Positions 1 through 60,429 of a stretch of DNA of 64,000 nt are shown here, one piece after another. The stretch lies in the NCBI GenBank assembly GCA_900320095.1, contig ONQZ01000004.1, forward strand, positions 4,227 through 68,226, read 5' to 3'. The notes under the pieces were generated by a model. The model saw only the letters and a list, made by a program, of their open reading frames with translations, made no database searches and was not told the origin of the DNA. This DNA is from an uncultured Lentisphaerota bacterium. Its GTDB lineage: Bacteria > Verrucomicrobiota > Lentisphaeria > Victivallales > UBA1829. The position numbers and the translations under genes are program-made. The first letter of the stretch is position 1; each line of letters opens with the position of its first letter.

Positions 1-49
1 TCTCCCGTTGTTCTCTGTTTTGTTCTGTTTCTCTTGTTCCGTCAGGATG

Positions 50-382: not shown

Positions 383-383
383 C

Positions 384-803: not shown

Positions 804-1031
804 GAGACGATCCTTTCATTCTGTTGTTGTTTGAGCTGCAAAAAGAAAAAACGGCTGTCCCCGGCGAGGGGGGAGGGCGGAGAATCCGTACGGCGGATAT
901 CCTGTTTGACGGCAATCAAAAGAGAATCCGCCTCCGCGCCAAGGAGATAGAGTTTCACGGCGGATTCCCCGTGCCCAGCTCCCCCCTCATCCGTCAGCCG
1001 CTTATTCCGTGTTCGGTCATTCCGCGTCCGG

Positions 1032-1940: not shown

Positions 1941-1988
1941 TTTCCTTTTTCAGATTGTTTTTGTGTTGTTGAACTCGGATGATCCGGC

Positions 1989-2399
1989 TCAGAGCGGGCC
2001 GTTGCCGATTTCCGCCACCACGCCGTCCGCGAGCACGTCGCGCACGACGCCGGCGACCACCGCCGCCGTGCCGCCCGTCAGCGTGACGGTCTGGTCGTCC
2101 TTCACGTAGCAGGTCTTGTTCAGGTCGCTCAGCGCAAACGCGCCGCTGCTGACCGGGGCATAGAGGAACATGCCGGAACGGGTCTTGACGGTCTCGCCGC
2201 CGGACGCCGTGTTTTCGGCGCGGCCGACCACGGTGATGGCACCAGCGGACGTGGCGGGGATCGCTTTTCCGCTGGAGTTGATCGCGGTGATGCCACCCGC
2301 GTAGACGGTGCTGCCCGAGGCGACGGTGAATTCACGCGTGTAGTGAACGCCGCCGGCCGCGATTTCACGGGTGTCTCTGGATTCTGTGAGTGCTGACAT
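1989..2399 (-). CDS. DUF2190-like head decoration/cement protein
   Basis: 136-aa Gly/Ala/Thr-rich small protein between the scaffold/protease and the capsid gene, the usual position of DUF2190-type proteins. Confidence 0.6.
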   Translation of the reverse strand: MSALTESRDTREIAAGGVHYTREFTVASGSTVYAGGITAINSSGKAIPATSAGAITVVGRAENTASGGETVKTRSGMFLYAPVSSGAFALSDLNKTCYVKDDQTVTLTGGTAAVVAGVVRDVLADGVVAEIGNGPL

Positions 2400-2447
2400 G
2401 GTTCATGTCTCCTTCTGTGTTGTGATTGTTTTGCGCCGCTGGGCTTT

Positions 2448-3518
2448 TCAGCCGTGCATGGCGCGCTGGTATTCGTCTTTGTCAAATCCGAATTTCCGGA
2501 TCATTTCCTCGTCCGCCGCGCTCAGGCTCCGCTTCGGCGCGCGCCGTTTGTCCGGCGCGAACGCCATGCGGCCCGGCACCACGGCGGGCGCGTGCTCCAG
2601 GTAGGACGCCAGCACGGCGCAGTCCTGGGTCCTCGCCCAGTCTTCCAGCGCGTGCGTCAGCTTCCCCTCCTGAAGCCCCTGTTCGATCAGCTCCGCCTTG
2701 CGTTTTTCCTCGGCGGCGCAGACCATCGTGTCGAGCTCCTGCCGCAGGGCGGCCGCCTGCCCGGCGCGTTCCTTCACGGCATCCAGCGCCGCGGACATCG
2801 CATCGTCGGGTTCGCCGTCCGCGATGCCGAGTCCTTCGCGCATGGCGGCGATCGTGTCCGCTTTCGCCTCGATCGCGGCCGCCGTACGCTCGATCGCGCC
2901 TTCTTCGTCGTCCTCGCCGGACAGCACGATCTCGTTCCACGCCGTCTTCCCGAGCAGACGCCCGAGGGCGCGTTCGATCGGGTCCTGAAGGCGTTTCAGT
3001 TCGATGGCGTTCCGTCCGATGTCCTCCGGGTCGGCGTCGTCTCCCTCGCCGCCCGCCGCCAGGACGTCCTCGCAGTTCAGCGCGGGCTCGTTTTCCATCG
3101 CCACGCTCGTGATGCGGATCGGGCCTTCCTTCAGGCCGCGGATCACCGGCGAACAGTACCGGAAAATCTTCTCCTTCAGGAGCTCGTACGCGCCCGGCGT
3201 CCATTCCGCCCGGATGCGAAGCTCGTCGCCCTCGCGGAACAGCGTCCCGAATCCCATCGCGGCAACGCCCGACGGGATCAGCCGCAGCGCTTCGCTTTCC
3301 TCCACGCCGTGCTTTTCCGCCAGAATGTGGAGGTAATGGTTGGAGTCGATCGGGATCGCCTCGCCTTTCTTCGCCTGGTACGCCGCGATAGCGTCCAGGT
3401 CCTCCACGCTCAATCGCAGTTCATAGTCCTTTCCGTTTTTCACGAGCCGGTTCACGCCCGCATGCAGCAGAGTCCATTCCTCCGGGACTCCGTTCGCGTC
3501 CTGTTTTACAGTGCTCAT
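2448..3518 (-). CDS. Mu gpI-like prohead protease/scaffold protein
   Basis: 356 aa. N-terminal region as in the Mu I protease family (..WTLLHAGVN...IPIDSNHY..). C-terminal half is Ala/Glu/Arg-rich and coiled-coil-like, as for a scaffold. Confidence 0.75.
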   Translation of the reverse strand: MSTVKQDANGVPEEWTLLHAGVNRLVKNGKDYELRLSVEDLDAIAAYQAKKGEAIPIDSNHYLHILAEKHGVEESEALRLIPSGVAAMGFGTLFREGDELRIRAEWTPGAYELLKEKIFRYCSPVIRGLKEGPIRITSVAMENEPALNCEDVLAAGGEGDDADPEDIGRNAIELKRLQDPIERALGRLLGKTAWNEIVLSGEDDEEGAIERTAAAIEAKADTIAAMREGLGIADGEPDDAMSAALDAVKERAGQAAALRQELDTMVCAAEEKRKAELIEQGLQEGKLTHALEDWARTQDCAVLASYLEHAPAVVPGRMAFAPDKRRAPKRSLSAADEEMIRKFGFDKDEYQRAMHG

Positions 3519-3577
3519 TTCCTGCTCCTATGTTTGTTTTGTCTTGTCCCCAATGGGGTAGTAAAAATCCGTTTTCC

Positions 3578-3712
3578 GTGCCGTAGCGGAGCACGGCACA
3601 ACTGTAGTGGAGGACTTGTCCTCCGTGCCGTAGCGGAGCACGGCACTACTCGACACACTCTGTGTGTGCCCGAGCGGAGCCGGGCACAACTGTAGTGGAG
3701 GACTTGTCCTCC
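3578..3712 (+). repeat. Double-hairpin (REP/BIME-like) repeat array, locus 1
   Basis: GTGCCGTAGCGGAGCACGGCAC at 3578-3599 and 3625-3646, and GTGCCCGAGCGGAGCCGGGCAC at 3666-3687. Each of two units is followed by linker aactgtagt and palindrome GGAGGACTTGTCCTCC (3609-3624, 3697-3712). Extra ACACAC-TCT-GTGTGT hairpin at 3653-3667. Confidence 0.9.
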
Positions 3713-5100
3713 TACCAGCCGAAAATTCGGTCTTCCATGCGCCGCTGATGAGGCGGCGGCAGAGGATCGACTCCGCACGGCGCCTCGTTCCCCCTGCCTG
3801 CCGCATGGACCGCCAGCGCGAGCGCCCAGAACCGGTCCGAATGTCCGGATTCGTCGCGTTCGGCGTCGTAGCGCACGTTTCCGGCGGCGGTCACGCTCCG
3901 CACGATCTTGTGCAGGTCGTGCCGCAGCACGTCGTCGGCGACGATCCGGATGCCGCGCGATTCGAACGCCGCCCGGACCGGCATGGCAAGCGCGGCCTTC
4001 ACAGGCCCCGTAAACGTCACGCTCTCCACGCGGTATTTCCCGTGGCGTTCCTGCATCTCCTCCGCCAGCATCATCCCGATCCCGGTCGCGTCGATGCAGA
4101 GGCGTTCCAGCCGGGCGTCGTCGAGGCGGCGCGCCAGGGCGTCGGCCTGCATGCGGAACGGCATGTTTTCCATGACTTCGTATCCGCTCTGCCACAGGAT
4201 GTCCCCGATGCGCGTCAGCTCGAAATACACCCCGACGTCCCTCTTCCGCCCCACGTCGTATCCGGCGTACCGGATCGCCTTCGGATGTTCGCTCAACGCT
4301 TTCTCAAGATCGCCCGCGTCGTTTTCGCACGCGCCGATCATGCCGTAGTCCAGCAGCGACGCGCCCGCCTCCGCCGCTTCGATCAGATACTGCGTCCGCC
4401 AGGCGTCTTCCGTGCGGCATTTCGCACGCATCGTCTTCAGCCACTCTTCGCGGCTCAATTCGCTCCCGGTTACGGCGTTGACGCGTTCCACAAATCCCTC
4501 TTCCACGGCATCCAATATGCTCGTTTTGTGGACGCTCCATCCCATCGCGTTCGCACCGTGTTCCGCCTCGTGAAGCATCCGGCAGAACGGCGATTCGCCG
4601 CTTCCGTCCACGCTCAGCGCGGACACCATTTCCAGCTGGCCGCCCCATGTGGTGCAGGGCATCGCCATGTCGATCACGCGTCCGCTGTCCTTGTGCAGGT
4701 CCGCCTCGTCGATCAGGATGTCCCCGCCCTTCCCGGCGAACGCCTCGGGCGTGCTGGACAGGCTGATGACGCGGCTGCCGTTGCCGTATTCCGCCGTGTA
4801 GGCGCGGATCCCGTGCAGGGGGTCGATGACCACGGCATCCTCCCCGGCGAGTCCGCGGCAGACCGCGTTGGCCGCCGCCGCCCATTTCGCGATGTAGTCC
4901 GTGATGAACTCGCGGGCGGTGAATTCGTCGCGGCTGGTCACCCACTGCACCGTCCCCGGCCGCCGCAGGCACTTGTCGTTCACGCGGAAGCTCGTGGCGT
5001 ACGTGATGCCGATCCGGCGCGATTTCGCGTACAGCTTCATTCGCGCGTCGTCCAGGATCCACCGTTTCTGGTACGGCAGAAAGTATTCCGACAGCTTCAT
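3712..5100 (-). CDS. Phage terminase large subunit
   Basis: 462 aa. ATPase part has a Walker-B-like DILIDEADLH. C-terminal RNaseH-like nuclease part has GYDVGRKRD, IDATGIG and HSDRFWALALA. Located at the head of the capsid module. Confidence 0.85.
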   Translation of the reverse strand: MKLSEYFLPYQKRWILDDARMKLYAKSRRIGITYATSFRVNDKCLRRPGTVQWVTSRDEFTAREFITDYIAKWAAAANAVCRGLAGEDAVVIDPLHGIRAYTAEYGNGSRVISLSSTPEAFAGKGGDILIDEADLHKDSGRVIDMAMPCTTWGGQLEMVSALSVDGSGESPFCRMLHEAEHGANAMGWSVHKTSILDAVEEGFVERVNAVTGSELSREEWLKTMRAKCRTEDAWRTQYLIEAAEAGASLLDYGMIGACENDAGDLEKALSEHPKAIRYAGYDVGRKRDVGVYFELTRIGDILWQSGYEVMENMPFRMQADALARRLDDARLERLCIDATGIGMMLAEEMQERHGKYRVESVTFTGPVKAALAMPVRAAFESRGIRIVADDVLRHDLHKIVRSVTAAGNVRYDAERDESGHSDRFWALALAVHAAGRGNEAPCGVDPLPPPHQRRMEDRIFGW

Positions 5101-13864: not shown

Positions 13865-15937
13865 ATGGCAACCGTCATCATCTCCAGCGGCATCACAAGT
13901 TCCGGTCTTGCCGTAAGTTCCGGCAACGGTCTGGAAGTTTTCGGCACGGCGGAGAATACCTCTGTCCTCACCGGCGGCTCCGCGACCGTATTCTCCGGCG
14001 GAAAAATGATCGTGACCCAGGTCGCCGAATCCGGTTTCGTGGACGTCTCCGGCGGCGTGGCGAACAGCACCACCGTCCTCGGAGGCGGCCGCATCCTCAT
14101 TTCCGCAGGCGGCAGCGCCAACGTGAACAGCATCCAGAGCGGCGGCTCCATGACCGTGGGACCGTCCGGCAGGGCGTCCCTCGTCGCGAACAGCGGCGGC
14201 TTCCTGACCGTTTCATCCGGCGGGACCGCCTACGTCGCGAACGCCGTTTCCGGCGGGGTTGTGGAGCTTCAGAACGGCGGGTCCGGCGTCTTCCTCACGC
14301 TTGCGAAGACCGGACGTCTGCTTGTCTCTTCCGGCGGCATCGCCGAAAAGGTCAATCTGAACGGCACCGCGACGGTTTACGCGGGCGGTTCCGCTTCGGG
14401 CGTGACCGTCTCGGACGGCGGCAGGTTCCTGATCTCCGGCGGCCTCGCGCAGGACGTCAATGTCCTCACCGGCGGAAACGCCGTTCTGTCCGGCGGCATC
14501 GCGAACAATGCCTCCGTCGCCTCCGATGGTTTCTTCACGATCTCTTCCGGCGGCACGGCATCCGGCGTCGAAGTCAACGGCTGGACCACCGTCCTGTCCG
14601 GCGGCGCGGCCGACAGCGTCGCGGTCAATTCCGACGCCTGGCTCGTCGTTTCCGGCGGCGGCAAACTGACCGGGCGGATGACCTTCGCAGCCGGCGCGTC
14701 CGTGAACGTCTACGGAAACGCCGTTCTCGACTTCGATATTTCCTCGCTCGCGCCCGGTTCGGATGCCCGCGTCAACGACCTTTCTCTCGTTCACGGCTCG
14801 CCCGAATTCACGCTTACGGTCTCCGGTTTGCAGGAACACGGCGACTATCTGCTTGCCGGAGGCGCCGCGAACTTCGCCAAAACTATCTCCGTCGTCGATA
14901 TGCTCGGCGAGTCGCTCGGCACGCTCACCGTCGGCGAGACCACGGACATCGGCGGCACGAACTACAAGCTCAACCTCACTGATGGCGTACTGTCCGTTTC
15001 GGTCGGAGTCGTCGAACCGTCTGGTCCGGCAAAAAACGATATTGATGGCAACGGCATCTCCGACGTGATGTTCGTGTGGACCGGAAACAATTATCAGCAC
15101 GGCTACTGGATGAACGGCACGTCCGAATGGCAGTCCGCCAACAGCGGCCATCCCGCCGACTGGGACAACCTCGGCTGTTACGACATGACCGGCAACGGCA
15201 AGGCGGATTCCGTGCTGTTCGGCAACGTGACCAGCGAGGCGGGCATCAAGGGCGCCTACATCGGGTTCTACTCCGACGCCATCGACAACACCGACGGCTC
15301 GACCTGGGTCAACATCGGCTACCTCACGAACGAGGACGATATCCAGTGGAAGAACAAGGTCGGCAACCTGACTGGAAACGAGGCAGGCGTGAACTCGATC
15401 GTCTGGTATGCGCCGGAGCTCTACGCGCTCGGCGTCTGGACCGACGGCACCGAAAACTGGATCACGCTCAGCGGCGATTTCGGCGGCTCCGACTGGACGC
15501 TCGTCGGCTGCGGCGACTTCGACGGCGATGGCAGGGACTCCGTGCTGATGAGTTATCTCGGCGGCAAAAAGTATTATGCCGTCGGCATCGACGGCACGGC
15601 AACGGACCTCGGCGCGGCCGACTGGTCAGGCTGGGAGGTCCGCGCGATCGGCGATTTCTCCGGCGACAAGAAGGACGACATCGTGCTGTTCCACAAGACG
15701 ACTGGCGCGATGGTCCTGTGCGCCGACGGAAATACGGACAGTTACACAACCATCGGCCAGCTCGACGCGCAGGACTGGTTCGTGGTCGGCGCGGGCGACT
15801 ACAACGCCGACGCGAAGGACGACCTGCTCGTCCGCCAGTATTCGACCGGCATGCTCGGCTATTACACCGGCGGCGACATGTCCCAGTGGAACGTGCTCGG
15901 CTACGGCGTTGATATGAACTGGACCGTCATAGCATAA
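13865..15937 (+). CDS. Leaderless repeat protein: N-terminal SGG-type beta-helix repeats + C-terminal FG-GAP/VCBS beta-propeller (paralog 1)
   Basis: 690 aa. More than 12 copies of a ~19-aa repeat (..SGG.A..T.V..GG...V..). Then D-x-[DN]-G-[DN]-G-x-D blades (DIDGNGISD, DMTGNGKAD, GDFDGDGRD, GDFSGDKKD, GDYNADAKD). No signal peptide seen. Confidence 0.8.
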   Translation: MATVIISSGITSSGLAVSSGNGLEVFGTAENTSVLTGGSATVFSGGKMIVTQVAESGFVDVSGGVANSTTVLGGGRILISAGGSANVNSIQSGGSMTVGPSGRASLVANSGGFLTVSSGGTAYVANAVSGGVVELQNGGSGVFLTLAKTGRLLVSSGGIAEKVNLNGTATVYAGGSASGVTVSDGGRFLISGGLAQDVNVLTGGNAVLSGGIANNASVASDGFFTISSGGTASGVEVNGWTTVLSGGAADSVAVNSDAWLVVSGGGKLTGRMTFAAGASVNVYGNAVLDFDISSLAPGSDARVNDLSLVHGSPEFTLTVSGLQEHGDYLLAGGAANFAKTISVVDMLGESLGTLTVGETTDIGGTNYKLNLTDGVLSVSVGVVEPSGPAKNDIDGNGISDVMFVWTGNNYQHGYWMNGTSEWQSANSGHPADWDNLGCYDMTGNGKADSVLFGNVTSEAGIKGAYIGFYSDAIDNTDGSTWVNIGYLTNEDDIQWKNKVGNLTGNEAGVNSIVWYAPELYALGVWTDGTENWITLSGDFGGSDWTLVGCGDFDGDGRDSVLMSYLGGKKYYAVGIDGTATDLGAADWSGWEVRAIGDFSGDKKDDIVLFHKTTGAMVLCADGNTDSYTTIGQLDAQDWFVVGAGDYNADAKDDLLVRQYSTGMLGYYTGGDMSQWNVLGYGVDMNWTVIA

Positions 15938-16173: not shown

Positions 16174-18411
16174 ATGTCAAAGATTATCATCGACAGCGAT
16201 AAGAACAATCAAACCATCAGCAGCGGCGTTTCCGCCTATGTGTGGAGCGGCGCGACGCTCAAAAACTCCTATGTCTCTTCCGGCGGCCGGCTCTACATCG
16301 AGAACGGGGCCGCCAGCGCCACCACCGTTTCAAAAGGCGGGTTCATGATCTTCAGCATGGGCTGTTCCGGCGGGACCAATTCGGTCCTTTCCGGCGGCAC
16401 CATGGCAATTATGTCGGGTGCGAACGTCGCCTACGTCACCGCGGCGAAGGGCGCGGCCATCATTCTGGAGGCCACTGCCAGCTCGTACTACACGCCTGCG
16501 ACCAAATTCACCGTCTCCTCCAACGGGGCCACCATCAAATGCACCGGCAGCACGTTCTCCGGCTGGGACAACATGAACACGCCCGGTTGCGCCCTGACCC
16601 TAGCTGGCGTTTCCGCATCCAGCATCAATGTCTCCAGCGGCTGCGTCCTGACCATCGGCGGCGTCAGCCGCTATGCCTCGGCCTCCGTCAACAAGGTGAA
16701 CGTCTACAACGGCGGCAAGGTCTACTTCACGCGCGTCGATACCGTCGGCACGGCTACGGCCCATGCCGGCGGTTCGCTCTTCGTCGCAGACGGCGCCACA
16801 GGGTCCGCCACCATCATCGAAAACGGCGGCAATGTGACGCTGTATTACGGGGACGAAATGCTGAACGATCCGGGCTGGGGTATTTCCATCAAGAAAAACA
16901 CGTTCTACAACGTCGTCGCCAGCGGCTACGATGTTCAGGATGTCGCCGCCCACTCCGGCACCACCGGCGTCAACACCACCCTGCTGGACAGCGCCTATTT
17001 CCGCGTCTACAGCGGTGGCAAGGCGTACGACACAGTCACCTCCGGCGGCACGCTGGACATTCGCTCCGGGGGCGTCGCCAGCAATGTCTACAACAATACC
17101 GGTCTGGTATGGGTTTCCAGCGGCGGCAAGATCACAGGCAAGATATCCATCAATCACCGTATCATCGTCGAAGACGGAGGCATTATCGACTTCGACATTT
17201 CCGGCATTCGCGGAGGTGATGCCGCCAGGTTCGACAACTACTACAACCTCCCGACCAACACAGGTTCCCCCACGCTCACGCTGACCGTCTCCGGACGCCA
17301 GCCCGACGGCACCTACACCCTCGCCACCGGCGCATATCAGATCGAAAAGAAGACGACCGACGCGGAGAAGACCCTGACCGTCTACAACACCTCCGGCTCG
17401 AAACTCGGCGCCGTCAAGCTCGGTCAGACCGTGAAGATCGGATCCGCCAGCTATTCCCTGAATCTCAACTCCGGATACCTCTCCGTCACCATCAGCGGCA
17501 GCGCGCCCGCCAAGGTCGTGAAATCCGACATCGACGCCAACAACAAGAGCGACATCCTCTTCCAGTACACCGGCGGCAACTATCAGACCGGATTCTGGAT
17601 GAACGGCTCCAACACCTGGAAAGGACAGGGCGTCCTGCACAGCAAGGACTGGACTCTGCTCGGCGCGCACGATATGAACGGCGACGGCAAGGCGGACACC
17701 GTCTACGTCGGAAATGTCACCGTCAACGGCGTGAAGGGCGCGTACATCGGCTATTACAACGCGGGCATCGACACCGACGCCAACTGGAAGAACATCGGCT
17801 ACCTGAACAACTCGGGCAACGTCGCCTGGAACAACGTCGTCGGCAATCTGACCGGATCCTACTGCAAAAACGACATCGTCTGGCATGCGCCTTCCCTCGG
17901 CGCGCTCGGCGTCTGGACCGACGGCACCGCCAACTGGACGAGTCTCGGCTCCGGATTCGATTCCCAGTGGAAGATCGTCGGCACCGGCGACTTCAACGGC
18001 AACGGTCAGGAATCCGTCCTCATGGCTCACGCGGGCGGCAACAACTACTACGCCGTGGACCTCTACGGCAACATCACCCACATGGGCGCATCCACTGGAG
18101 GCTGGGAAGTCGTCGCCATCGGCGATTTCTACGGCGACGGAAAGGACGACGTCATCGCCTTCAACAAGACCTACGGGCTCGTCGACGTCTGGAGCGACGG
18201 CAAGACCAACGTCGACGTCAACATCGGACAGGTCAACGCGAAAGACTGGTTCATCGCCGGAGCCGGCGATTACAACGGCGACGGAAAAGACGATCTCCTG
18301 GTCCGCCAGAAATCCACGGGCATGCTCGGCTACTACGCCGGCGCGAACATGAAGTCCGGCTGGCAGACGCTCGGCTACGGCGTCAGCAACGCCTGGACCG
18401 TCATCGCATAG
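16174..18411 (+). CDS. Leaderless repeat protein: beta-helix repeats + FG-GAP/VCBS beta-propeller (paralog 2)
   Basis: 745 aa with the same architecture as 13865..15937. Shared middle motif (..DFDIS...TLTVSG...Y.L.L..G.LSV) and shared C-terminus (LLVRQ.STGMLGYY...GYGV...WTVIA). Confidence 0.8.
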   Translation: MSKIIIDSDKNNQTISSGVSAYVWSGATLKNSYVSSGGRLYIENGAASATTVSKGGFMIFSMGCSGGTNSVLSGGTMAIMSGANVAYVTAAKGAAIILEATASSYYTPATKFTVSSNGATIKCTGSTFSGWDNMNTPGCALTLAGVSASSINVSSGCVLTIGGVSRYASASVNKVNVYNGGKVYFTRVDTVGTATAHAGGSLFVADGATGSATIIENGGNVTLYYGDEMLNDPGWGISIKKNTFYNVVASGYDVQDVAAHSGTTGVNTTLLDSAYFRVYSGGKAYDTVTSGGTLDIRSGGVASNVYNNTGLVWVSSGGKITGKISINHRIIVEDGGIIDFDISGIRGGDAARFDNYYNLPTNTGSPTLTLTVSGRQPDGTYTLATGAYQIEKKTTDAEKTLTVYNTSGSKLGAVKLGQTVKIGSASYSLNLNSGYLSVTISGSAPAKVVKSDIDANNKSDILFQYTGGNYQTGFWMNGSNTWKGQGVLHSKDWTLLGAHDMNGDGKADTVYVGNVTVNGVKGAYIGYYNAGIDTDANWKNIGYLNNSGNVAWNNVVGNLTGSYCKNDIVWHAPSLGALGVWTDGTANWTSLGSGFDSQWKIVGTGDFNGNGQESVLMAHAGGNNYYAVDLYGNITHMGASTGGWEVVAIGDFYGDGKDDVIAFNKTYGLVDVWSDGKTNVDVNIGQVNAKDWFIAGAGDYNGDGKDDLLVRQKSTGMLGYYAGANMKSGWQTLGYGVSNAWTVIA

Positions 18412-18421
18412 CACATTCCCC

Positions 18422-18581
18422 GTGCCGTCGCGTAGCACGGCACTACCGCCGTCCAGGGCTTGCCCTGGCAAGCGAAGCTGAGAGCACTACTTCAGTGGAA
18501 GACTTGCCCTCCGTGCCCGAGCGGAGCCGGGCACTACTGCAGTCCAGGGCTTGCCCTGGTGCCCCGGCGACGCTCGGGCAC
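18422..18581 (+). repeat. Double-hairpin (REP/BIME-like) repeat array, locus 2
   Basis: Hairpin-1 copies at 18422-18443, 18513-18534 and 18559-18581. 16-nt palindromes CCAGGGCTTGCCCTGG at 18453-18468 and 18544-18559, and GGAAGACTTGCCCTCC at 18497-18512. 9-nt linkers taccgccgt, tacttcagt, tactgcagt. Confidence 0.9.
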
Positions 18582-32230: not shown

Positions 32231-32248
32231 GATCATTTCAACTGTCCC

Positions 32249-32340
32249 GTGCTCACGCGAAACTGAGAGCACTGTGTCAGCACACTCCGTGTGTGCTCAA
32301 GCGAAGCTGAGAGCACTATCGCAGTGCAGGCGCTGCTTGC
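32249..32340 (+). repeat. Double-hairpin (REP/BIME-like) repeat array, locus 4
   Basis: 24-nt hairpins GTGCTC-N12-GAGCAC at 32249-32272 and 32293-32316. AGCACAC-TCC-GTGTGCT hairpin at 32279-32295. Linker tatcgcagt, then imperfect palindrome GCAGGCGCTGCTTGC (32326-32340), which abuts the metG stop complement (tca 32341-32343). Confidence 0.85.
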
Positions 32341-39098: not shown

Positions 39099-41393
39099 TC
39101 ACTGAGGCGGAGTTTCCGCTTTCTCCGCGGATGTGTCCGGGGTCTCCGTCATCAAATGCCCGTAGTGTTCCTGAACGTACTGATTGACCGGGCTGTAGGG
39201 AAACGCGTCTTTCGAGATCCACTTCACGCTCGCCGGGATGTCGATCTCGCGGATGTGGCAGCCCCGGAACGCCTCTTTCCCGATGCGCTCCAGGCCGTCC
39301 GGCAGGATGACTTTCCGCACGTTCCAGCAACCGCGGAAGGCGCCCGCCCCGATCTCCTTCACGCCCGCCGGGATCGTGATCACCGGTATGGAACAGATTT
39401 CGAACATCCTGTCGACGACCCGTTCCATATTGTCCGGGAGCACGAGCTCCTTGGCGCGGCAGGCGCTGAACGCGCCGTCCTCGAAATGCGTTACCGTGTC
39501 CGGCACGACGATACGGTCGAAGGTACACCCGGCGAACGCATTGGACGCGATTGTGCGGATATTCTCCGGCACCGTGAAAACCCCCGCCGTGTCCCTCGGC
39601 GCTTCGAGCAGGCGTCCCGTGACGGAATTGAACAGCGTGCCGTCGTCCAGCCGCTTGAACCTGCTGTCCGGCGGGAAGACCATATTTTCCCAGTGCATCC
39701 CGATCCCGTCCAAATCCTCAATGTCCCCGTGAAAAACGAGTTTGTGTTCCTTCGGTCCGTACGCATACCACCAGCCGAACGCGTTTCTTCCGATGCGCTT
39801 CACGCTCGCCGGCAGTTCGATATGGGACAGGCTCGTTGCGAAAAACGCATTGTCCCCGATAGATTCGACGCCGTCCGGGAACTCCACGCTCCGCAGCAGA
39901 TGGCATTCAGAAAAGGCTTTTTGTCCGATCGTCTTCGCGCCCGCCGGGATACGAATACTCTTCAGAGTCTTACAGCCGGAAAACATGCCGTCCGAAATCG
40001 AATTCATCCCGTCCGCAAGCTCGCACTTCGTCAGGGAGACGCAGTTCCTGAAAATATCCGGTTCAATCCGGGAAGGCGCACCGGCGATTTCCACCTCGGT
40101 CAGACGTACGTCCTCAGCAAACGCGTTGGATCCGATAAAATTTACGCCCGCCGGGATCCGGATCTTCTCCAGGGACCGGCAGTGCTCGAACGCGCCGTCG
40201 CCGATGGCTTCCAGCGATTCCGGGAGCGTGATCCGGCTCAGGGAAACGCATCTCTCAAACGCGCCCGCCCCGATCCGCATAACGTCCGGGAGCTCGACAT
40301 CCCTCAGAAAACTGCATCTGCCGAATCCCCAGACGGACGGAGACGGATTGCCGCTGCGGCCCTGCTTGTGCGTGCGGACGCGGAGCAGACTGAGGCATCC
40401 GTCGAACCCCTCCAGCGAGGCGTCCCGCGCCACTACGACCTCCTCCAGCCGTATGCAGTTTTTGAACGAGACCGACTGGATCCCGACCGGGATCGAGGCA
40501 TATTTCAGCGTGGAACTGCCGGGAAATTCGAATTTGGCGGCATAAGGATTCAAATCGTGTTCGAGAAGGAGTTTTCGAAGGGTTTCATCCACGGCGGGGA
40601 CACTCTCCGGGATCGGACCGAAGGTATCAATGGATCTCAGGGCGGAACACCCCGCGAAAGCACTGCCGTCGCACCGGCGGAGCGTATGCGGCAGCGCGAT
40701 CATCTTCAGCGAGGTGCAGTCCTGAAACGCATGATAACCGAGTCCGGCAAGATTGGCGGGCATGCGGACGTCCGACAACGCCGTGCACCCGTGGAACGCA
40801 TGCTTTCCGATCACCAGCACATTGTCCGGGATCCTGATGCGTTTCAGGCTCGTGCACCCGGCAAAAGCCCCCTCGCCGATGGAAACCAGCGTAGAAGGCA
40901 GCGTAACGCGTTTCAGCTGCGTACATTTCCAAAACGCTTTCGCGCCGATGTGCGCGACGCCTTCCGGCACCTCGAATTCGACCGTGTCCTCCGGGACCAC
41001 CCATAGTGTCCTGCTGGGAGGATCGCCGGAATCAAGATACTCCGGGGAAGGATACGGCATGTGGTGCGGACCCGCCAGATAATCGTCCGGGAAGGGCCAA
41101 GCCGTCGTTTTCGGGCGCCGGTCATGGATGAGGTAGAACGGGAATGAGGAGAAAATCTCTTCGTACCTCAAATCCTGGTATCGTTCGAGGTCTTCCGGAA
41201 AAAGCCGGAAACTGAAGCGGGCGCGAACCGGAACGAACGGTACGCCGAGATTGCAGATGATGCGCCACGGCAGCAGGTAAAGTATCACGGAGCCGATGAA
41301 CATGGCCAGGAACAGGAAGGACATGCACGAAATGCGGCGCAATTTGGACCGGTGCAGAGAACGCGGCTCGTCGGATGTATGATCTTGAGGCAT
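39099..41393 (-). CDS. Large BspA-type leucine-rich-repeat protein with N-terminal membrane anchor
   Basis: 764 aa. TM segment ISCMSFLFLAMFIGSVILYLL, then more than 15 LRR_5-like repeats (P..V..IG..AF..C..L..I.IP). Confidence 0.85.
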   Translation of the reverse strand: MPQDHTSDEPRSLHRSKLRRISCMSFLFLAMFIGSVILYLLPWRIICNLGVPFVPVRARFSFRLFPEDLERYQDLRYEEIFSSFPFYLIHDRRPKTTAWPFPDDYLAGPHHMPYPSPEYLDSGDPPSRTLWVVPEDTVEFEVPEGVAHIGAKAFWKCTQLKRVTLPSTLVSIGEGAFAGCTSLKRIRIPDNVLVIGKHAFHGCTALSDVRMPANLAGLGYHAFQDCTSLKMIALPHTLRRCDGSAFAGCSALRSIDTFGPIPESVPAVDETLRKLLLEHDLNPYAAKFEFPGSSTLKYASIPVGIQSVSFKNCIRLEEVVVARDASLEGFDGCLSLLRVRTHKQGRSGNPSPSVWGFGRCSFLRDVELPDVMRIGAGAFERCVSLSRITLPESLEAIGDGAFEHCRSLEKIRIPAGVNFIGSNAFAEDVRLTEVEIAGAPSRIEPDIFRNCVSLTKCELADGMNSISDGMFSGCKTLKSIRIPAGAKTIGQKAFSECHLLRSVEFPDGVESIGDNAFFATSLSHIELPASVKRIGRNAFGWWYAYGPKEHKLVFHGDIEDLDGIGMHWENMVFPPDSRFKRLDDGTLFNSVTGRLLEAPRDTAGVFTVPENIRTIASNAFAGCTFDRIVVPDTVTHFEDGAFSACRAKELVLPDNMERVVDRMFEICSIPVITIPAGVKEIGAGAFRGCWNVRKVILPDGLERIGKEAFRGCHIREIDIPASVKWISKDAFPYSPVNQYVQEHYGHLMTETPDTSAEKAETPPQ

Positions 41394-50356: not shown

Positions 50357-50416
50357 TCTTTCCCGCGCATACGCGCAAGTTTCAGTTAAAACAAGTTCCT
50401 TTTAACTGAAACTTGA
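50357..50416 (+). repeat. 60-bp direct repeat with 15-bp AT-rich perfect stem, copy 1
   Basis: ctttcccgcgcatacgcgcaagtttcagttaaaacaagttccttttaactgaaacttga. Stem AAGTTTCAGTTAAAA / TTTTAACTGAAACTT. Confidence 0.9.
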
Positions 50417-50538: not shown

Positions 50539-50597
50539 CTTTCCCGCGCATACACGCAAGTTTCAGTTAAAACAAGTTCCTTTTAACTGAAACTTGA
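50539..50597 (+). repeat. 60-bp direct repeat with 15-bp AT-rich perfect stem, copy 2
   Basis: Identical to copy 1 except for one G>A change (catacAcgc). The two copies start 182 bp apart. Confidence 0.9.
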
Positions 50598-54170: not shown

Positions 54171-55322
54171 ATGCGCGAAACATTTCTGCCTTTCTCCAAG
54201 CCATCGATCCAGGAATGGGAGATTTCCGAGGTCGCCAATGTGCTGCGTTCCGGCTGGATCACCACCGGCCCGAAGAACGCCGAATTCGAAAAGGCTTTCT
54301 GCGCCTACACCGGCGCGAAGCACGCGATCCCGATGACGTCCGAGACGTCCGTCATGCAGGTGCTGTTCCGCGCGCTCGGCCTGAAGCCCGGCGACGAGGT
54401 CATCACGCCCTCCATGACGTGGGTCTCCCTGCCGAACGTCGCTTCCCTGTACGGCGCGAAGCCGGTCTTCGTCGACTGCGACCGCGACACGCTTATGATC
54501 ACGGCGGACGCGATCGAGGCGGCGATTACGCCGCGTACGAAGGCGATCGTCCCGGTCCATTTCGCGGGCGGCGTGCTGGAGCTTGACAAAATCCGTGCCG
54601 TTGCCGCCAAACATAACATCGTGCTCATCGAAGATGCCGCGCACGCGCTCGGCGCCGAGTTCAAGGGCGAACGCGTTGGCAAGCACGGGCACGTGATGTT
54701 CTCGTTCCACCCGATCAAGAACATCACCACGGGCGAGGGCGGCATGTTCGCCACGGACGATGCGGCGCTCGCCGACCGCGTCCGCAGCCTCAAATTCCAC
54801 GGCCTCGGCGTCGACGCCTACGACCGTCAGACCATGGGCCGCGCTCCGCAGGCGCAGGTGGTCGAACCCGGATTCAAGTTCAACATGCCGGACATGCAGG
54901 CGGTCCTGGGCATCACCCAGCTGACTCGTGTGGACCGCATGAACGCCGAACGCGGGCATCTCGCCGCGCTCTACCGCGAACGCCTCGCGGACATCCCCGA
55001 GCTGATCCCGCTGGCGCAGCCCGCCTACGAGTACAAGGATTCCTACCACCTGATGGTCGTACGCCTGGACATCGACAAGACGGGCATTACGCGCGATGAC
55101 TTCATGTCCGAGCTCAAGAAGCGCAACATCGGCACCGGACTGCATTTCCGCTGCGTCCACGGCCAGAAATACTACCGCGAAAACTGCCCCGTTCCGGCGG
55201 GAACACTGCCGAACACCGAGTGGAACAGCGAACGCATCTTCTCGCTGCCGTTCTTCCCCGGCATGTCCGACGCCGACGTCGACGACGTGATCGATACCTG
55301 CAAAGAGATTCTGGCGAAGTGA
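54171..55322 (+). CDS. arnB: UDP-4-amino-4-deoxy-L-arabinose--oxoglutarate aminotransferase (DegT/DnrJ/EryC1 family)
   Basis: LPFSKPSI...SGWITTGPKN...DEVITPSMTWVS, and the PLP-lysine context FSFHPIKNITTGEGG. Confidence 0.9.
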   Translation: MRETFLPFSKPSIQEWEISEVANVLRSGWITTGPKNAEFEKAFCAYTGAKHAIPMTSETSVMQVLFRALGLKPGDEVITPSMTWVSLPNVASLYGAKPVFVDCDRDTLMITADAIEAAITPRTKAIVPVHFAGGVLELDKIRAVAAKHNIVLIEDAAHALGAEFKGERVGKHGHVMFSFHPIKNITTGEGGMFATDDAALADRVRSLKFHGLGVDAYDRQTMGRAPQAQVVEPGFKFNMPDMQAVLGITQLTRVDRMNAERGHLAALYRERLADIPELIPLAQPAYEYKDSYHLMVVRLDIDKTGITRDDFMSELKKRNIGTGLHFRCVHGQKYYRENCPVPAGTLPNTEWNSERIFSLPFFPGMSDADVDDVIDTCKEILAK

Positions 55323-55333
55323 GGTAAGACTGC

Positions 55334-57466
55334 ATGGCGGGCGGGTTCGACATGATGCGGTTTCAGGAGTGCAGCGACACGCTGATCCCCTCGATTCGCA
55401 AAAATGCGAAGTGGATCACATTCTGGGTCTTCGCCTGCTTCGTCCTTTTCCTCGGACTCGGCATCTACCCCGCCATCCGCTCGGAAGCCCGCTGGTTCGA
55501 GGTCGTTCGCGAAATGCTTATGACCGGCGACTGGCTGCATCCGCGCATCAACGGCCAGGCGTACTTCGACAAGCCGCTCGTCAGCTACTGGTTCGCCGCG
55601 GTCGTCTCGAAGCTCGCGGGCGGACACGTCACCGAGCTTTCCGTCCGTCTCCCGAGTGCACTTTTCGCGCTGGCCGGACTCGCCTGCATCATTTCCGTCG
55701 CCCGCAAGTTCTATTCCGAGCGCACGGCGTATCTGGCGGGCTGGATCCTGCTCAGCACGTATTCGTTTATCGTGTGGGGCCGCCTCGCCGAGGCGGACAT
55801 GGAGCAGACGGTCTTCATCGTGATGGCGGTTACGGTGTACCTGCACCACCGGGAAACGCCGTCCTTCTGGGCGTATTTCGCGTTCTGGAGCTGCTGTGCG
55901 GTCGGTGCGCAGACCAAGGGGCTGCCCGCATTCGTCATCCCGCCCGCCCTGGCGCTCATCGACTGCGTCGTCCGGAAATCGTTCCGTGTGCATCTGAACT
56001 GGAAATTCTTCCTCGCGTTCTTCCTCGGCGGCCTCTGCCTGTACGCCGTGCCGTTCGTGCTGGAGGCGCTGACCTCGGAGCATTACGGCGCGAGCGGGAT
56101 CGTGCTGGTCTTCCGCGAGAACCTGATGCGCGTGTTCAATCCGTGGGACCACAACAAAGACCCGTTCTACGTGTATTTCCTGTATCTGCCGCGCCTGATG
56201 ATCCCGTGGACGCCCTTCTTCATCTTCGCGGTCATCGATTATGTCCACGGGCTCATCCGTGCCGTTGCGAAGCAAGGCACTGCTTCTGTGGAGGACTTGT
56301 CCTCCCGCAAGCCGTGCTCGAAGGACACGCTGTGGCTGTTCGCCTCGATGGTGTTCATCTTTATCCTGTTCTCCGCCTCGCGGTCGCGCCGTTCGTACTA
56401 CATCCTGCCGATCGTGCCGTGGTGCGCGCTCTTCACCGCCGCGTGGTTCTCCCAGCCGCAGGAGGGTTGGTCTTTCCTGCGAAAAATTACTGACAGATTC
56501 GCGAAGCTCGTGGACGCGCTGATTCCGGCGGCCGCCATCCTCCTGATCGTGTTTGCCGTCCTGACTCCGGGGATCACCTTCCTCGACTTCATCGGACTGG
56601 CTACCGGGAGGACCAGCCCTCTGCAGTTTATCCCGATTGACAGAAGGGAACTGGACATTTTGCTGTCCACTGTCCTTGCTCCGTTCGCCCTCATCGTCGG
56701 GATCGGGTTTCTGGTTTTCTGGCGACGTTCGCGGAAGAAACTCAAACAGGAGAATGCCGAGGGCGTTTTCGCGCCCGCCACCGATCCTCTGAACCGTGTG
56801 GTCCCGTTCGTGGCGTTCGTCCTGTTCACCGTCTTCTCCTTCCTGATCCCGCAGCTGAGCCGGACCAAATCCATCGAACCGGCCGCCCCCTTCCTGCGCG
56901 AGCAGGCCGCCTTGCTGAAGGAGATTCTTGCGAAGGACCCGGACTATATCAACCGTGTGGCGTTTTTCGGTTCGTCCAATGGCGCGGAACTGGCGTTCTA
57001 CCTGGATCTTCCCGCGCCGGTGAAGATGTTCTCGCTGGAGAAGCTTGACGACTCCAACCGCACGTTCATTTCCGACACGGTCGACATCAAGGGCCCGGAG
57101 GAGTTCATGGAGTTTCTGCATGAAGTGAAGGAACACGGCGGCATGGTGATCACGCGCGGAGAATGGGTGCGGCACATCATGGAATACCAGAACAACTCGC
57201 CCGAACCGAGGAATTACCCCACGTCTTCCCCGATGTACAGGTATCTGACGGATATCTGTTACTGTGATGGCTCCGGACTCAGCGAGCCGGCCTTGCGCCG
57301 GGAGAGACGGCTTAAAGCCGCCCTGGCCGCCGACCCCGAAAACGCAAAACTTCAGCGCAAGCTCGACAAACTGACTGAAAAACAAGTCGTGATATTCTAT
57401 TCAAGACCCAAATCCAATGCTCAGCCCGCCGAAGCGGACGGCGCAGAAGGGACCACGCAACCATGA
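55334..57466 (+). CDS. arnT: Undecaprenyl-phosphate-L-Ara4N:lipid A transferase-like glycosyltransferase (GT39/GT83, ArnT-like) with C-terminal extension
   Basis: 710 aa, polytopic. N-terminal loop motif EARWFEVVREM..GDWLHPRINGQAYFDKPLVSYW. Sits inside the arn cluster. About 150 aa longer than typical ArnT, as I recall it. Confidence 0.75.
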   Translation: MAGGFDMMRFQECSDTLIPSIRKNAKWITFWVFACFVLFLGLGIYPAIRSEARWFEVVREMLMTGDWLHPRINGQAYFDKPLVSYWFAAVVSKLAGGHVTELSVRLPSALFALAGLACIISVARKFYSERTAYLAGWILLSTYSFIVWGRLAEADMEQTVFIVMAVTVYLHHRETPSFWAYFAFWSCCAVGAQTKGLPAFVIPPALALIDCVVRKSFRVHLNWKFFLAFFLGGLCLYAVPFVLEALTSEHYGASGIVLVFRENLMRVFNPWDHNKDPFYVYFLYLPRLMIPWTPFFIFAVIDYVHGLIRAVAKQGTASVEDLSSRKPCSKDTLWLFASMVFIFILFSASRSRRSYYILPIVPWCALFTAAWFSQPQEGWSFLRKITDRFAKLVDALIPAAAILLIVFAVLTPGITFLDFIGLATGRTSPLQFIPIDRRELDILLSTVLAPFALIVGIGFLVFWRRSRKKLKQENAEGVFAPATDPLNRVVPFVAFVLFTVFSFLIPQLSRTKSIEPAAPFLREQAALLKEILAKDPDYINRVAFFGSSNGAELAFYLDLPAPVKMFSLEKLDDSNRTFISDTVDIKGPEEFMEFLHEVKEHGGMVITRGEWVRHIMEYQNNSPEPRNYPTSSPMYRYLTDICYCDGSGLSEPALRRERRLKAALAADPENAKLQRKLDKLTEKQVVIFYSRPKSNAQPAEADGAEGTTQP
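56259..56305 (+). repeat. Double-hairpin (REP/BIME-like) unit embedded in frame inside arnT, locus 5
   Basis: GTGCCGTTGCGAAGCAAGGCAC (56259-56280), linker tgcttctgt, GGAGGACTTGTCCTCC (56290-56305). Same spacing as the intergenic units. Encodes ..AVAKQGTASVEDLSS... Confidence 0.8.
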
Positions 57467-58431
57467 CAACGCCCGAAATCGAACTCTCCCTCGTCATTCC
57501 GGTCTACAACGAGGAGGAAAACCTGACCGAGCTCATCGCCCGCACGACCGCGGCATGCGACAAGCTGGACTGCACGACCGAGATCATCCTCGTGGACGAC
57601 GGCAGCGCCGACCGCAGCATGGAAATGATCATCGAGGCGTCGCAGAAGGACCCGCGCATCGTGGGCGTGATCCTGACCTCGAATTTCGGCCAGCATGCCG
57701 CCGTGACAGCCGGATTCCAGACGTCGCGCGGCAAATACGTCGTCACGCTCGATGCCGACCTGCAGAACCCGCCGGAGGAGATCCATAAGCTCCTGGAAAA
57801 ACTGCGCGAGGGCTACGACGTCGTCGGCTCCATCCGCGAAAACCGCCAGGACACGCTGTTCCGCAAGGTCGGCTCGAAGATGGTCAACCTCATGGTCCGC
57901 AAGCTCTGCAACGGCAAGACCATGACCGACTACGGCTGCATGCTCCGCGGCTACAGCCGGAACGTCGTGGACGCGGTCCTGCTGTGCCACGAGAACGGCA
58001 AGTTCATCCCGATGCTCGCGATGACCTACGCGCGCAAGTCCGTCGAGGTGCATGTGAAGCACGCAGAGCGCGCCGCGGGCGAGTCCAAGTACAGCGTGAT
58101 GAAGCTCATCGCGCTCCAGTACGACCTGCTGACCGGCACCAGCACCTTCCCGCTCCGCCTGCTGACCTTCTTCGGGTTCGGCGTCGGCGCGTTCGGCGTT
58201 TTGTTCGGTCTCTATGTCTTCATCCGTTCCCAGCTCGACAAGGACTGGGGCTTCGGCGGCACGTTCGCGCTGTTCGCCGTCGTCTTCGTGCTCATCGGCA
58301 TGCAGTTCGCATCCATGGGACTCCTGGGCGAGTACATCGGCAAGATCCACCTGAACTCGCGCGCCCGCCCTCAATTCTTCATCGAATCGATTCATCGCAA
58401 AAACAATACACAACCCAAAGAACAGGAGTGA
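57463..58431 (+). CDS. arnC: Undecaprenyl-phosphate 4-deoxy-4-formamido-L-arabinose transferase (GT2)
   Basis: LSLVIPVYNEEENL, VDDGSADRS, LDADLQNPPEEI, and two C-terminal TM segments. ATGA overlap with arnT. Confidence 0.88.
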   Translation: MTTPEIELSLVIPVYNEEENLTELIARTTAACDKLDCTTEIILVDDGSADRSMEMIIEASQKDPRIVGVILTSNFGQHAAVTAGFQTSRGKYVVTLDADLQNPPEEIHKLLEKLREGYDVVGSIRENRQDTLFRKVGSKMVNLMVRKLCNGKTMTDYGCMLRGYSRNVVDAVLLCHENGKFIPMLAMTYARKSVEVHVKHAERAAGESKYSVMKLIALQYDLLTGTSTFPLRLLTFFGFGVGAFGVLFGLYVFIRSQLDKDWGFGGTFALFAVVFVLIGMQFASMGLLGEYIGKIHLNSRARPQFFIESIHRKNNTQPKEQE

Positions 58432-58437
58432 CACCGC

Positions 58438-60429
58438 ATGAAAGCTGTCGTCTTCGCTTACAACAACATCGGCTGCATCGGCATCGAACAGCTCGTCAAG
58501 GCCGGCGTGACCGTCCAGGCCGTCTTCACCCATGCTGACGATCCCAACGAAAACCTCTGGTTCCGTTCCGTCGCCGAAACCGCCGCCTCCCTCGGCATCC
58601 CGGTCTTCGCGCCCGAGGACGTCAATCATCCGCTCTGGGCCGGACGCATCAAAAAGATGGCTCCCGACTTCATCTTCTCGTTCTACTACCGCAAGGTCAT
58701 CGGCAAGGACATCCTCGCCATCCCGAAGAAAGGCGCGTTCAACCTCCACGGCTCGCTCCTCCCGAAATACCGCGGCTGCGCCCCGCTGAACTGGGCCGTC
58801 ATCAACGGCGAAAAGGAATCGGGCGTAACGCTTCACAAGATGACCGCGAAGGTCGACGCCGGCGACATCGTGGCGCAGGAGAAGTTCGCGATCGCGGATT
58901 CCGACACCGCGAAGGACGCACACCTGAAGGCTGCCGCCGCCGCCGAAAAACTGCTCAAGAAAGTCCTGCCCTCCGTGCTCGCGGGCAAGGCGAAAGGCAA
59001 AAAGCAGGACGAAAAGCAGGCCACGTACTTCGGACACCGCTGCCCCGCCGACGGGCTCATCGACTGGACCAGGGACGCCGTTGCCGTCCGCAACCTCGTG
59101 CGCGGCGTGACCCGTCCTTTCCCCGGCGCGTTCACGTTCATCGCCGCTCAGAAATATTTCATCTGGGACGTTTCGGTCGTGCCGCTGAAGAAGAAAGCCC
59201 CGGCGGGCACCATCGTCTCCGTCGCTCCGTTCGTGATCGCCTGCGGCAAGGGTGCCGTACAGGTGAACTTCGCGCAGAAGGACGGCGGCCTGTATACGAC
59301 CGGCGAACAGCTCGCCGCGGACAGCCGTTTCACTCCGAAGATGGTCCTCACCAATTCGCCGATTGTTGGCCCGAAACGCAAGAAAAGCGTGCTGATCCTG
59401 GGCGTGAACGGCTTCATCGGCAGCGCCATCAGCCAGCGCCTGCTGGAGGACGGCAACTACGAGGTGTACGGCATGGACCTCCGCAGCGGCTACATCACCG
59501 ACCTGCTGTCCCATCCCGATTTCCACTTCTTCGAGGGCGACGTGCAGATCAACCACGAGTGGATCGAATACCACGTCCGCAAGTGCGATGTTGTCCTGCC
59601 GCTGGTCGCCATCGCCACCCCGATCGAGTACACCCGCAATCCGCTCCGCGTCTTCGAGCTCGACTTCGAGGAGAACCTGAAGATCGTCCGCTACTGCGCC
59701 AAGTACAACAAGCGCATTATCTTCCCCTCCACCTCCGAAGTCTACGCCATGTGCGACGACGAGAACTTCGACGAGGACAACTCCCGCCTCATCCTCGGCC
59801 CGATCCGCATGCAGCGCTGGATCTACTCCTGCAGCAAGCAGATGCTCGACCGCGTGATCTGGGCTTACGGTGCGTCCCGCGGCCTCAAGTTCACGCTCTT
59901 CCGCCCGTTCAACTGGATGGGCCCGAAGCTCGACTCGCTCTCCTCCGCCCGCATCGGCAGCTCCCGCGCCATCACCCAGCTCATCCTGAACCTGGTGCAG
60001 GGCAACCCGATCCTGCTCATCGACGGCGGCGCGCAGAAACGCTGCTTCACGCACGTGACCGACGGCATCGAGTGCCTGTTCCGCATCATCGAGAACAAGG
60101 ACGGCCTCTGCGACGGCAAGATCATCAACATCGGCAACCCCGACAACGAAGCCAGCATCAAGGAGCTCGCCGAAATCCTCGTCGAACTCTTCAACGAGCA
60201 TCCGCTCCGCAAGAAATTCCCGCCGTTCGCCGGCTGCAAGGAAGTCGAAAGCGGCACCTTCTACGGCGCGGGCTATCAGGACTGCCAGCACCGCAAGCCC
60301 AGCATCCGCAACGCCATGAAGTACTGCGGCTGGAAACCCGTCGTGCCTCTGCGCGAATCCATCAAGCAGACGCTCGACTTCTTCCTCCAGCAGGCCATTT
60401 CCTCCGGCGAGTTCGGGATCAAGAAATGA
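58438..60429 (+). CDS. arnA: Bifunctional UDP-Ara4N formyltransferase / UDP-glucuronate oxidative decarboxylase
   Basis: 663 aa. N-terminal formyltransferase ([17 protein letters not shown]). C-terminal SDR ([13 protein letters not shown]; YSCSK). Confidence 0.93.

Follow-up and report, generated by a model that had tools for sequence, protein, structure and literature searches.

In-frame REP-like hairpin units in an arnT-like glycosyltransferase gene of uncultured rumen Lentisphaeria

A 64,000-nucleotide stretch of DNA from an uncultured Lentisphaerota bacterium (contig ONQZ01000004.1; hereafter the window) carries an arn-like gene cluster, and inside its gene for an ArnT-like glycosyltransferase lies, in frame, a complete unit of a short repeat resembling repetitive extragenic palindromic (REP) elements. 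The unit is built of two different hairpins joined by a linker (Table 1). The initial annotation of the window had placed it within a single open reading frame (ORF) of 710 codons and divided it into 22, 9 and 16 nt, and both the coordinates and the anatomy hold. The unit is a genuine member of a REP-like family restricted to a clade of rumen Victivallales/Lentisphaeria, and in arnT it is a true insertion.

The arnT-like gene and its insertion

Table 1. Repeat units, host gene and neighbouring genes in the window (positions in nt).
Feature	Position	Strand	Remarks
Complete REP-like unit, 47 nt	56259-56305	+	22-nt hairpin 1, 9-nt linker, 16-nt hairpin 2
Hairpin 1, GTGCCGTTGCGAAGCAAGGCAC	56259-56280	+	9 bp, one bulge, GAA triloop within GCGAAGC (fold)
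Linker, TGCTTCTGT	56281-56289	+	9 nt, unpaired; sole fast-evolving part of the insert
Hairpin 2, GGAGGACTTGTCCTCC	56290-56305	+	arms GGAGGAC/GTCCTCC, loop CTTG
Net-inserted 45 nt	56261-56305	+	codons Ala310-Ser324, AVAKQGTASVEDLSS; missing from empty alleles (protein alignment; DNA of L004, L096 and L001 against filled alleles)
arnT-like GT-C glycosyltransferase	55334-57466	+	710-codon ORF; Pfam PMT_2/PMT; product includes ...GLIRAVAKQGTASVEDLSSRKPCSKD...
arnB-like DegT aminotransferase	54171-55322	+	arnT context
arnC-like GT2	57463-58431	+	arnT context
arnA-like formyltransferase/epimerase	58438-60429	+	arnT context
Intergenic array, three units	3578-3712	+	between phage-like genes; same family
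Intergenic array, three units	18422-18559	+	hairpin-2 variants CCAGGGCTTGCCCTGG (compensatory) and GGAAGACTTGCCCTCC
Variant array	32244-32335	+	hairpin 1 of type GTGCTC..GAGCAC plus CACACTCCGTGTGTG hairpin; repeat-finder family D19; related to the middle unit 18466-18512

The host gene is predicted to encode an ArnT-type GT-C glycosyltransferase (GT83/GT39-like), as suggested by its Pfam domains, its best structural match and its arn-type neighbours, after which a polysaccharide deacetylase comes next in syntenic arn-like loci. Searching the PDB with a profile of the orthologs gave a sole match, C. metallidurans ArnT (CmArnT; 5ezm/5f15, E 6e-16). The same structures are the best Foldseek matches (E 2e-15, TM-score 0.69 on the target) of an AlphaFold model of the host protein with a predicted TM-score of 0.70.

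The first two positions of the unit (GT) finish the Arg309 codon CGT. All six of its frames are mostly free of stops, and the frame used in arnT yields the most hydrophilic peptide, poor in Cys, Trp and Pro. The isolated unit folds into both hairpins at -19.5 kcal/mol, and both are retained when 167 nt of mRNA context are folded; a scan of the arnT-like gene for terminators and promoters found nothing at the insert. The repeat finder grouped the unit with six copies, at 3578, 3625, 3666, 18422, 18466 and 18513, all on the plus strand, and the 47 nt are 83% identical to the intergenic reference copy at 3578-3624. The 16-mer of hairpin 2 had been described as an exact palindrome shared with the phage locus. 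Its copies at 3609 and 3697 are indeed identical to that at 56290, and these three are the only exact ones in the window, but the palindrome is imperfect: 7-nt arms surround a central TT, and the reverse complement differs at the two central bases. With at most two mismatches, seven matches occur in the window against 0.03 expected from shuffles. That an ancestral coding sequence merely came to resemble the repeat is therefore extremely improbable on the 16-mer alone, and the idea is refuted by the residues missing from close and distant homologs and by tandem 48-nt copies in orthologs.

The empty state of the site is preserved in many relatives. Three orthologs of 695 amino acids (P0003-P0005), 92-93% identical to the window protein, read GLIR/RKPCS across the site (marked by the slash) and lack exactly AVAKQGTASVEDLSS, 15 residues in all; the same residues are missing from all homologs at 44% identity or below, those in the alignment being 37-44% identical. 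One distant homolog checked at the site, L120, is empty, and the repeat is absent from 253 kb around the distant homologs. The homolog alignment and the search for empty alleles that the initial annotation had proposed thus both came out on the side of an insertion, and homologs from repeat-free surroundings do not carry the residues that would have made the coding sequence ancestral. At the DNA level, filled and empty alleles differ by exactly 45 nt: the empty allele of L004 reads CTCATCCGC directly followed by CGGAAGCCGTGC, and the window allele reads CTCATCCG, a 45-nt segment beginning with T, and then CGCAAGCCGTGC.

Among 68 full-length orthologs (65 ingroup and three outgroups), 27 are empty, comprising 24 of the ingroup and all three outgroups, and the other 41 ingroup alleles are filled. 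Eighteen filled alleles have one unit followed by RKxxSKD (type A), and a further 18 have one unit with the next 18 nt deleted, reading ...DLSS/DTLW across the deletion (type B). Two units are found in three alleles and three units in two (P0018 and P0066). The units of L003 are three identical copies of 48 nt, those of L089 measure 48, 51 and 48 nt, and those of L102 measure 51 and 48 nt. Deleting whole 48-nt units (GTGCC...TCCTCCC) from L098, L003, L102 and L089 gives ATC CGC CGC, which is the empty sequence of L096 and L004; the window form is one CGC codon shorter, which makes its net insert 45 nt. Genic units therefore measure 45, 48 or 51 nt as against 47 nt for the intergenic unit of gain or loss, and their being multiples of three inside genes only is direct evidence of selection for frame. 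The insertion lies wholly within a real ORF, keeps its frame and is missing from orthologs. Dozens of orthologs whose units, in frame at a single codon, number 0, 1, 2 or 3, together with an intergenic difference of 47 nt, amount to an unusually clean natural experiment.

The sequences come from metagenome contigs and metagenome-assembled genomes (MAGs), and repeats can mislead assemblers. A repeat misjoined into the gene is nevertheless hardly credible, because seven contigs, of NCBI, ENA and Logan origin, encode the identical protein, dozens of independent assemblies (JGI, ENA and GTDB genomes) hold filled alleles that share the junctions, and the frame is always preserved.

The insert lies at a permissive position, in a low-confidence segment between two helices that aligns to a loop of CmArnT. 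The mean confidence of the AlphaFold model (predicted local distance difference test) per ten residues is 82 for residues 301-310, 56 for 311-320, 51 for 321-330 and 90 for 331-340, and predicted helices at 293-316 and 330-349 flank the insert. In the profile alignment, the site falls in the loop before the helix leading to SRSRRSYY, which aligns with SRSK..Y345 of CmArnT, and the loop residues next to the insert are hypervariable among orthologs. The loop insertion supposed in the initial annotation is thus borne out by the model and the alignment. Y345 lies near the phosphate of undecaprenyl phosphate in 5f15, and ArnT has 13 transmembrane (TM) helices with its first loop and its TM7-TM8 loop (PL4) in the periplasm (PMC7801869). 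Counting from this topology would place the insert in the cytoplasmic TM8-TM9 loop, and the Arg and Lys residues flanking it fit the positive-inside rule. The TM8-TM9 loop, if cytoplasmic as the counting suggests, would be permissive to insertions of 15-50 residues.

The repeat family and its second host gene

A scan with the pattern GGCAC-N9-GGAGGACTTGTCCTCC, which covered one genome per species and catches one exact hairpin-2 subtype, gave 91 stretches with about 100 copies from 13 rumen Victivallales/Lentisphaeria MAGs; one further match, in an Anaerolineae genome, was judged to be due to chance. In family units the first hairpin has 9 bp, a bulge and a GNA triloop, and the second has 6-7 bp and a CTTG loop; the units fold at -19.5 to -25 kcal/mol. 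The stems of hairpin 1 vary by compensatory changes (GT/AC, CG/CG, GG/CC), with pairs 6-17 and 7-16 covarying across the family. In the set used for covariation, where the search pattern itself dictated the outer pairs, 97.5% of cells are paired and five pairs have changes on both sides, a level reached in 0 of 500 shuffles; the covariation measure is 0.146 against 0.038 in shuffles.

Short GC-rich stem-loops with compensatory changes (here of 22 and 16 nt), multiple copies (three arrays and a genic copy within 64 kb, in addition to those in the 13 genomes) and a mainly intergenic position at gene 3' ends are all features of REPs and bacterial interspersed mosaic elements (BIMEs). The stop codon of an opposite-strand gene is abutted by 33 of 102 copies, the distance being 0 or -1 for 19 of these, and hairpin 1 is preceded by a pyrimidine in all but one of the copies counted (C 44, T 33, G 1, A 0). 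The GTAG/CGTC end tag of the Di Nocera classification is not conserved: GTAG precedes hairpin 2 in a minority of copies (for example at 3578 and 3666), most copies carry GCAG or TCAG there (the linker is mostly NCAGT), and hairpin 1 begins GTGCC after the pyrimidine. Nor does the family resemble MITEs (transposable elements of the miniature inverted-repeat type), since the ends of a unit belong to different hairpins and no target duplication is seen at the arnT junctions.

Whole units are also gained or lost between genes. The orthologous locus of L094, with two units, falls short of the array at 3578-3712 by exactly one 47-nt unit, and L087 has one unit there. This array stands between two of the phage-like minus-strand genes in the first 5,100 nt of the window (positions 1-5100), which are capsid-like at 1032-1940, at 2448-3518 and terminase-like at 3712-5100; the terminase-like ORF has a TAG stop codon that shares bases with the end of hairpin 2. 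The phage-like locus is also present in the two other rumen genomes (L094 and L087), and it looks like a resident, vertically shared prophage-like region and not a recent phage. A scan of viral contigs for the unit gave zero matches and thus no sign of free phages carrying the family, despite the array in this locus.

No match for the repeat was found in Rfam 15 at the gathering threshold, where the window has only two tRNAs. A tblastn search for a REP-associated tyrosine transposase (RAYT), with an E. coli RayT query, is a weak test that covered 1.17 Mb; it gave no credible match, the best E value being 0.95. An inverted pair of copies in L028, considered as a RAYT cassette, flanks a gene with a lipoprotein-type signal sequence (a putative secreted protein) and no transposase. 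Searching 5.8 billion sequences with three tandem copies of the peptide returned only a 50-residue fragment, a 16-residue match being unable to reach significance in such a search.

Among the scanned copies, a test of GC content by codon position left only two truly intragenic hosts, ArnT and an HrpB-like DEAH helicase. Long ORFs spanning copies in L083, L042, L076, L046, L092, L014, L023 and others were rejected as antisense shadows or as cases with the element just upstream of the real start. HrpB alleles were compared by motif anchoring between SQLEAALP and AAAYPDRIA. The linker between these motifs holds either an unrelated sequence of 17-18 residues or units (RAGAKPGTAAVEDLSS and variants) numbering from 1 to at least 4, which include other hairpin-1 subtypes as well as the ArnT subtype (P0180) and are read in other frames too; some alleles have a second insertion site. 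The HrpB linker of this clade is a hypervariable repeat hot spot, with 0 to at least 4 units (genes in L034, L075, L020 and L048; proteins P0122-P0188). In P0186, P0173 and P0179 the host motif QLEAALPR is duplicated and stands on both sides of the unit, and an HrpB allele with the element has the same length as the linker without it.

Long stop-free antisense ORFs are typical of genomes rich in GC at third codon positions (GC3), and in the window they reach 737 residues opposite arnT (55172-57385, minus strand) and 1054 residues opposite secDF. Such ORFs span repeat copies and may be mis-annotated as repeat-carrying genes. For annotation, the inserts may pass for lineage-specific protein motifs and the spanning GC-rich antisense ORFs for genes.

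The window holds other repeats. Two 59-nt copies (50358-50416 and 50539-50597), 98% identical and 181 nt apart, lie upstream of yajC-secDF; both include a long inverted repeat rich in AT (AGTTTCAGTTAAAA...TTTTAACTGAAACT) and belong to a family different from the REP-like unit. Seven copies of a 44-nt periodic repeat with 61-77% identity at 39202-40838 are probably minus-strand coding sequence of a repeat protein, judging by spacing and composition. The paralogous stretches at 15170-15909 and 17659-18383, 73-79% identical, are probably repeat-protein coding sequence as well, and the array at 18422-18559 begins just after the second of them.

Conservation, age and turnover of the insert

Nucleotide diversity (pi) over the aligned inserts of 17 filled orthologs is 0.043 in the stem of hairpin 1, 0.029 in the stem of hairpin 2 and 0-0.03 in the loops, as against 0.167 in the linker and 0.15-0.18 over all sites of the flanks. 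At third codon positions it is 0.23-0.26 in the flanks and 0.024 within the stems. The nucleotide sequence of the hairpins is kept constant, and frozen stems beside a freely drifting linker point to a constraint on the hairpins themselves. At the Ser codon of the linker, each of the four bases occurs in third position, and the codon variants are distributed by host clade. Because the linker is as diverged as the gene and its variants track the clades, the insert appears to be as old as the clade of orthologs at least 52% identical. All arnT inserts have one hairpin-1 subtype, which by a hand count is found in only about 8% of other copies, and the sharing of this rare subtype favours one origin.

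These observations are best accommodated, with a probability of about 0.8, by a REP-like unit that entered arnT once and was followed by in-frame copy-number turnover and allele shuffling. Units of the family would normally reside directly behind stop codons, in head-to-tail arrays in which whole units come and go. One of them would have entered arnT in the ancestor of the orthologs at least 52% identical, at the cytoplasmic end of TM8 in the TM8-TM9 loop and far from the periplasmic active site. The insert may have been tolerated for two reasons: its length was divisible by three (48 nt at first and 45 nt afterwards in the lineage of the window), and its stop-free frame encoded the small hydrophilic peptide. 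It would then have behaved as an in-frame minisatellite, with tandem duplication to two or three units, exact loss of units and adjacent in-frame deletions (type B), while homologous recombination moved insert alleles between strains. We infer a single origin, gain and loss by slippage or recombination between the repeated hairpin modules, and neutrality for ArnT function.

Conservation at this level speaks for a different possibility, which the initial annotation had raised for the peptide and the mRNA structure, namely that the hairpins have been exapted. They could be kept as an mRNA structure (for pausing at TM8-TM9, as an RNase site, or for decoupling arnB and the 5' part of arnT from downstream genes) or as a protein-bound DNA structure, or the peptide could have a role. 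Conservation of stems and loops exceeds that of nearby synonymous sites about ten-fold while the linker drifts, the rare codons GTT, CAA and TTG are kept (GC3 of the insert is 0.67, against 0.80-0.89 in the host gene), the insert is kept in 41 of 65 orthologs over a range of 52-100% protein identity, and both hairpins persist in their mRNA context. We nevertheless regard exaptation as unlikely, since the insert is dispensable: 24 ingroup orthologs do without it, some of them 92-95% identical. The copy number varies from 1 to 3 beside a hypervariable loop, nothing terminator-like is found at the site, and the HrpB linker holds several subtypes of the element in several frames, an observation that speaks against a specific function of the peptide.

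A second alternative concerns how the units arrived. A transposase of the RAYT or IS200/IS605-like kind, or another one, could insert the element 3' of a pyrimidine-rich target (YCC^G) and have struck the arnT site repeatedly. Elements of the IS200/IS605 type make no target-site duplication and show exact presence or absence, and the arnT insert resembles them in both respects. The pyrimidine before hairpin 1 fits such a target, which hairpin 2, ending in TCC, would recreate, so that head-to-tail arrays would be explained as well. The distribution is patchy, and the HrpB site clearly took in several subtypes and frames. Recurrent insertion into arnT is doubtful all the same. All arnT inserts have the one hairpin-1 subtype and a related linker despite a diverse genomic pool, the linker variants track host clades and have diverged as much as the gene, and the net insert is 45 or 48 nt and not the 47-nt unit. 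The search of 1.17 Mb, a weak test, gave no RAYT-like ORF.

Several observations sit uneasily with a single entry followed by neutral turnover. In a simply neutral insert the hairpins should decay, yet they are conserved about ten-fold better than the synonymous sites around them. Filled and empty alleles are distributed very patchily, with at least 16 changes on a rough neighbour-joining tree, and both occur even within the clade at least 92% identical; a single origin then requires many exact losses or much allele exchange. The junction codon of empty alleles is never CGT, and no flanking direct repeats explain an exact loss of the 45-nt form of the window. No transposase was found in the 1.17 Mb searched, and the membrane side of the loop comes from counting helices.

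Patchiness is nonetheless most economically explained by loss and gain of units together with recombination. Trees of three gene segments do not group the empty alleles together, and arnT in the close clade is a recombination mosaic, in which pairwise comparisons of L004, L096, L064 and L097 with the window show blocks of 0% divergence alternating with blocks of 15-27%, notably about 250-350 nt downstream of the insert. Old balanced alleles were considered and rejected, since divergence around the indel is raised only in the hypervariable 24 nt beside the site and the pattern is that of a recombination mosaic.

A bolder possibility, which we think rather improbable, is that the in-frame hairpins are actively maintained by selection on nucleic-acid structure or recognition (by a protein of the host or of the element, or by the ribosome or RNA decay machinery), with a site-directed mechanism that adds and removes units at the pyrimidine-rich end of an existing unit. 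The arnT and hrpB loops would then be landing pads for a reversible, frame-preserving REP module, and the series of alleles with 0, 1, 2 and 3 copies would offer rare before-and-after sites for how REP-type elements move.

Relation to known repeat systems

REPs and BIMEs of the E. coli type are hairpin repeats at gene 3' ends that form mosaic arrays, show compensatory stem changes and are mobilised by RAYT proteins, and REPINs are inverted pairs. The family described here is similar in its 3'-end hairpins, its mosaic arrays of hairpin types and its compensatory stem changes. It differs from REPINs in its direct units, and no RAYT was found here (a weak test over 1.17 Mb).

In-frame copies of REPs are on record. 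The initial annotation had called REPs classically intergenic, which describes most copies of this family, but it overstated their rarity in ORFs. The survey of Di Nocera, De Gregorio & Rocco (2013, PMC3733652) documents REPs wholly inside ORFs in many species, as singles, dimers or clusters encoding 8-80 residues. They are most numerous in Opitutus terrae, of the Planctomycetes-Verrucomicrobia-Chlamydiae (PVC) group, and in R. conorii. Many sit in genes for helicases and repair, HrpA of Opitutus terrae among them; REP ends often supply stop codons (PMC3733652). The GTAG/CGTC REPs and the present family are alike in being short, GC-rich and palindromic, mostly intergenic by stop codons and sometimes in frame in ORFs. 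The present unit differs in having two different hairpins in the same orientation instead of a single palindrome or an inverted dimer, and in lacking a conserved tag. In the term-matched passages and supplementary tables of PMC3733652, the rumen Victivallales family and its hosts are not described, nor is there an ortholog series with 0-3 copies, an adjustment from 47 to 48 nt or conservation at synonymous sites.

The classic case of palindromic mobile repeats in frame in many unrelated genes is that of the Rickettsia palindromic elements (RPEs; Ogata et al. 2000, as cited in PMC10969869), whose peptide is thought to lie at the protein surface without destroying function (PMC10969869). By that account RPEs are about 100-150 bp long, fall into sequence families unrelated to the present one and occur in reduced intracellular genomes, as opposed to 47 nt, two host genes found and tandem in-frame arrays here. 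Homology between the two is unlikely, judging by length (47 against 100-150 nt) and host. Small repeats with open frames in genes are also represented by the intragenic enterobacterial repetitive intergenic consensus (ERIC) and other small mobile sequences of enterobacteria (Delihas 2007, as cited in PMC10969869). This family shows neither the terminal inverted repeats nor the target duplications of ERIC sequences and MITEs.

In form, copy pattern and position, the repeat matches a REP family, and in-frame REP insertion is already a known type of event. The present case adds the allele series, a unit length that goes from 47 nt to a multiple of three, and hairpins conserved at the nucleotide level inside an ORF. 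REP-type hairpins colonise coding sequence in an uncultured rumen lineage of the PVC group too, beyond Proteobacteria and Rickettsia.

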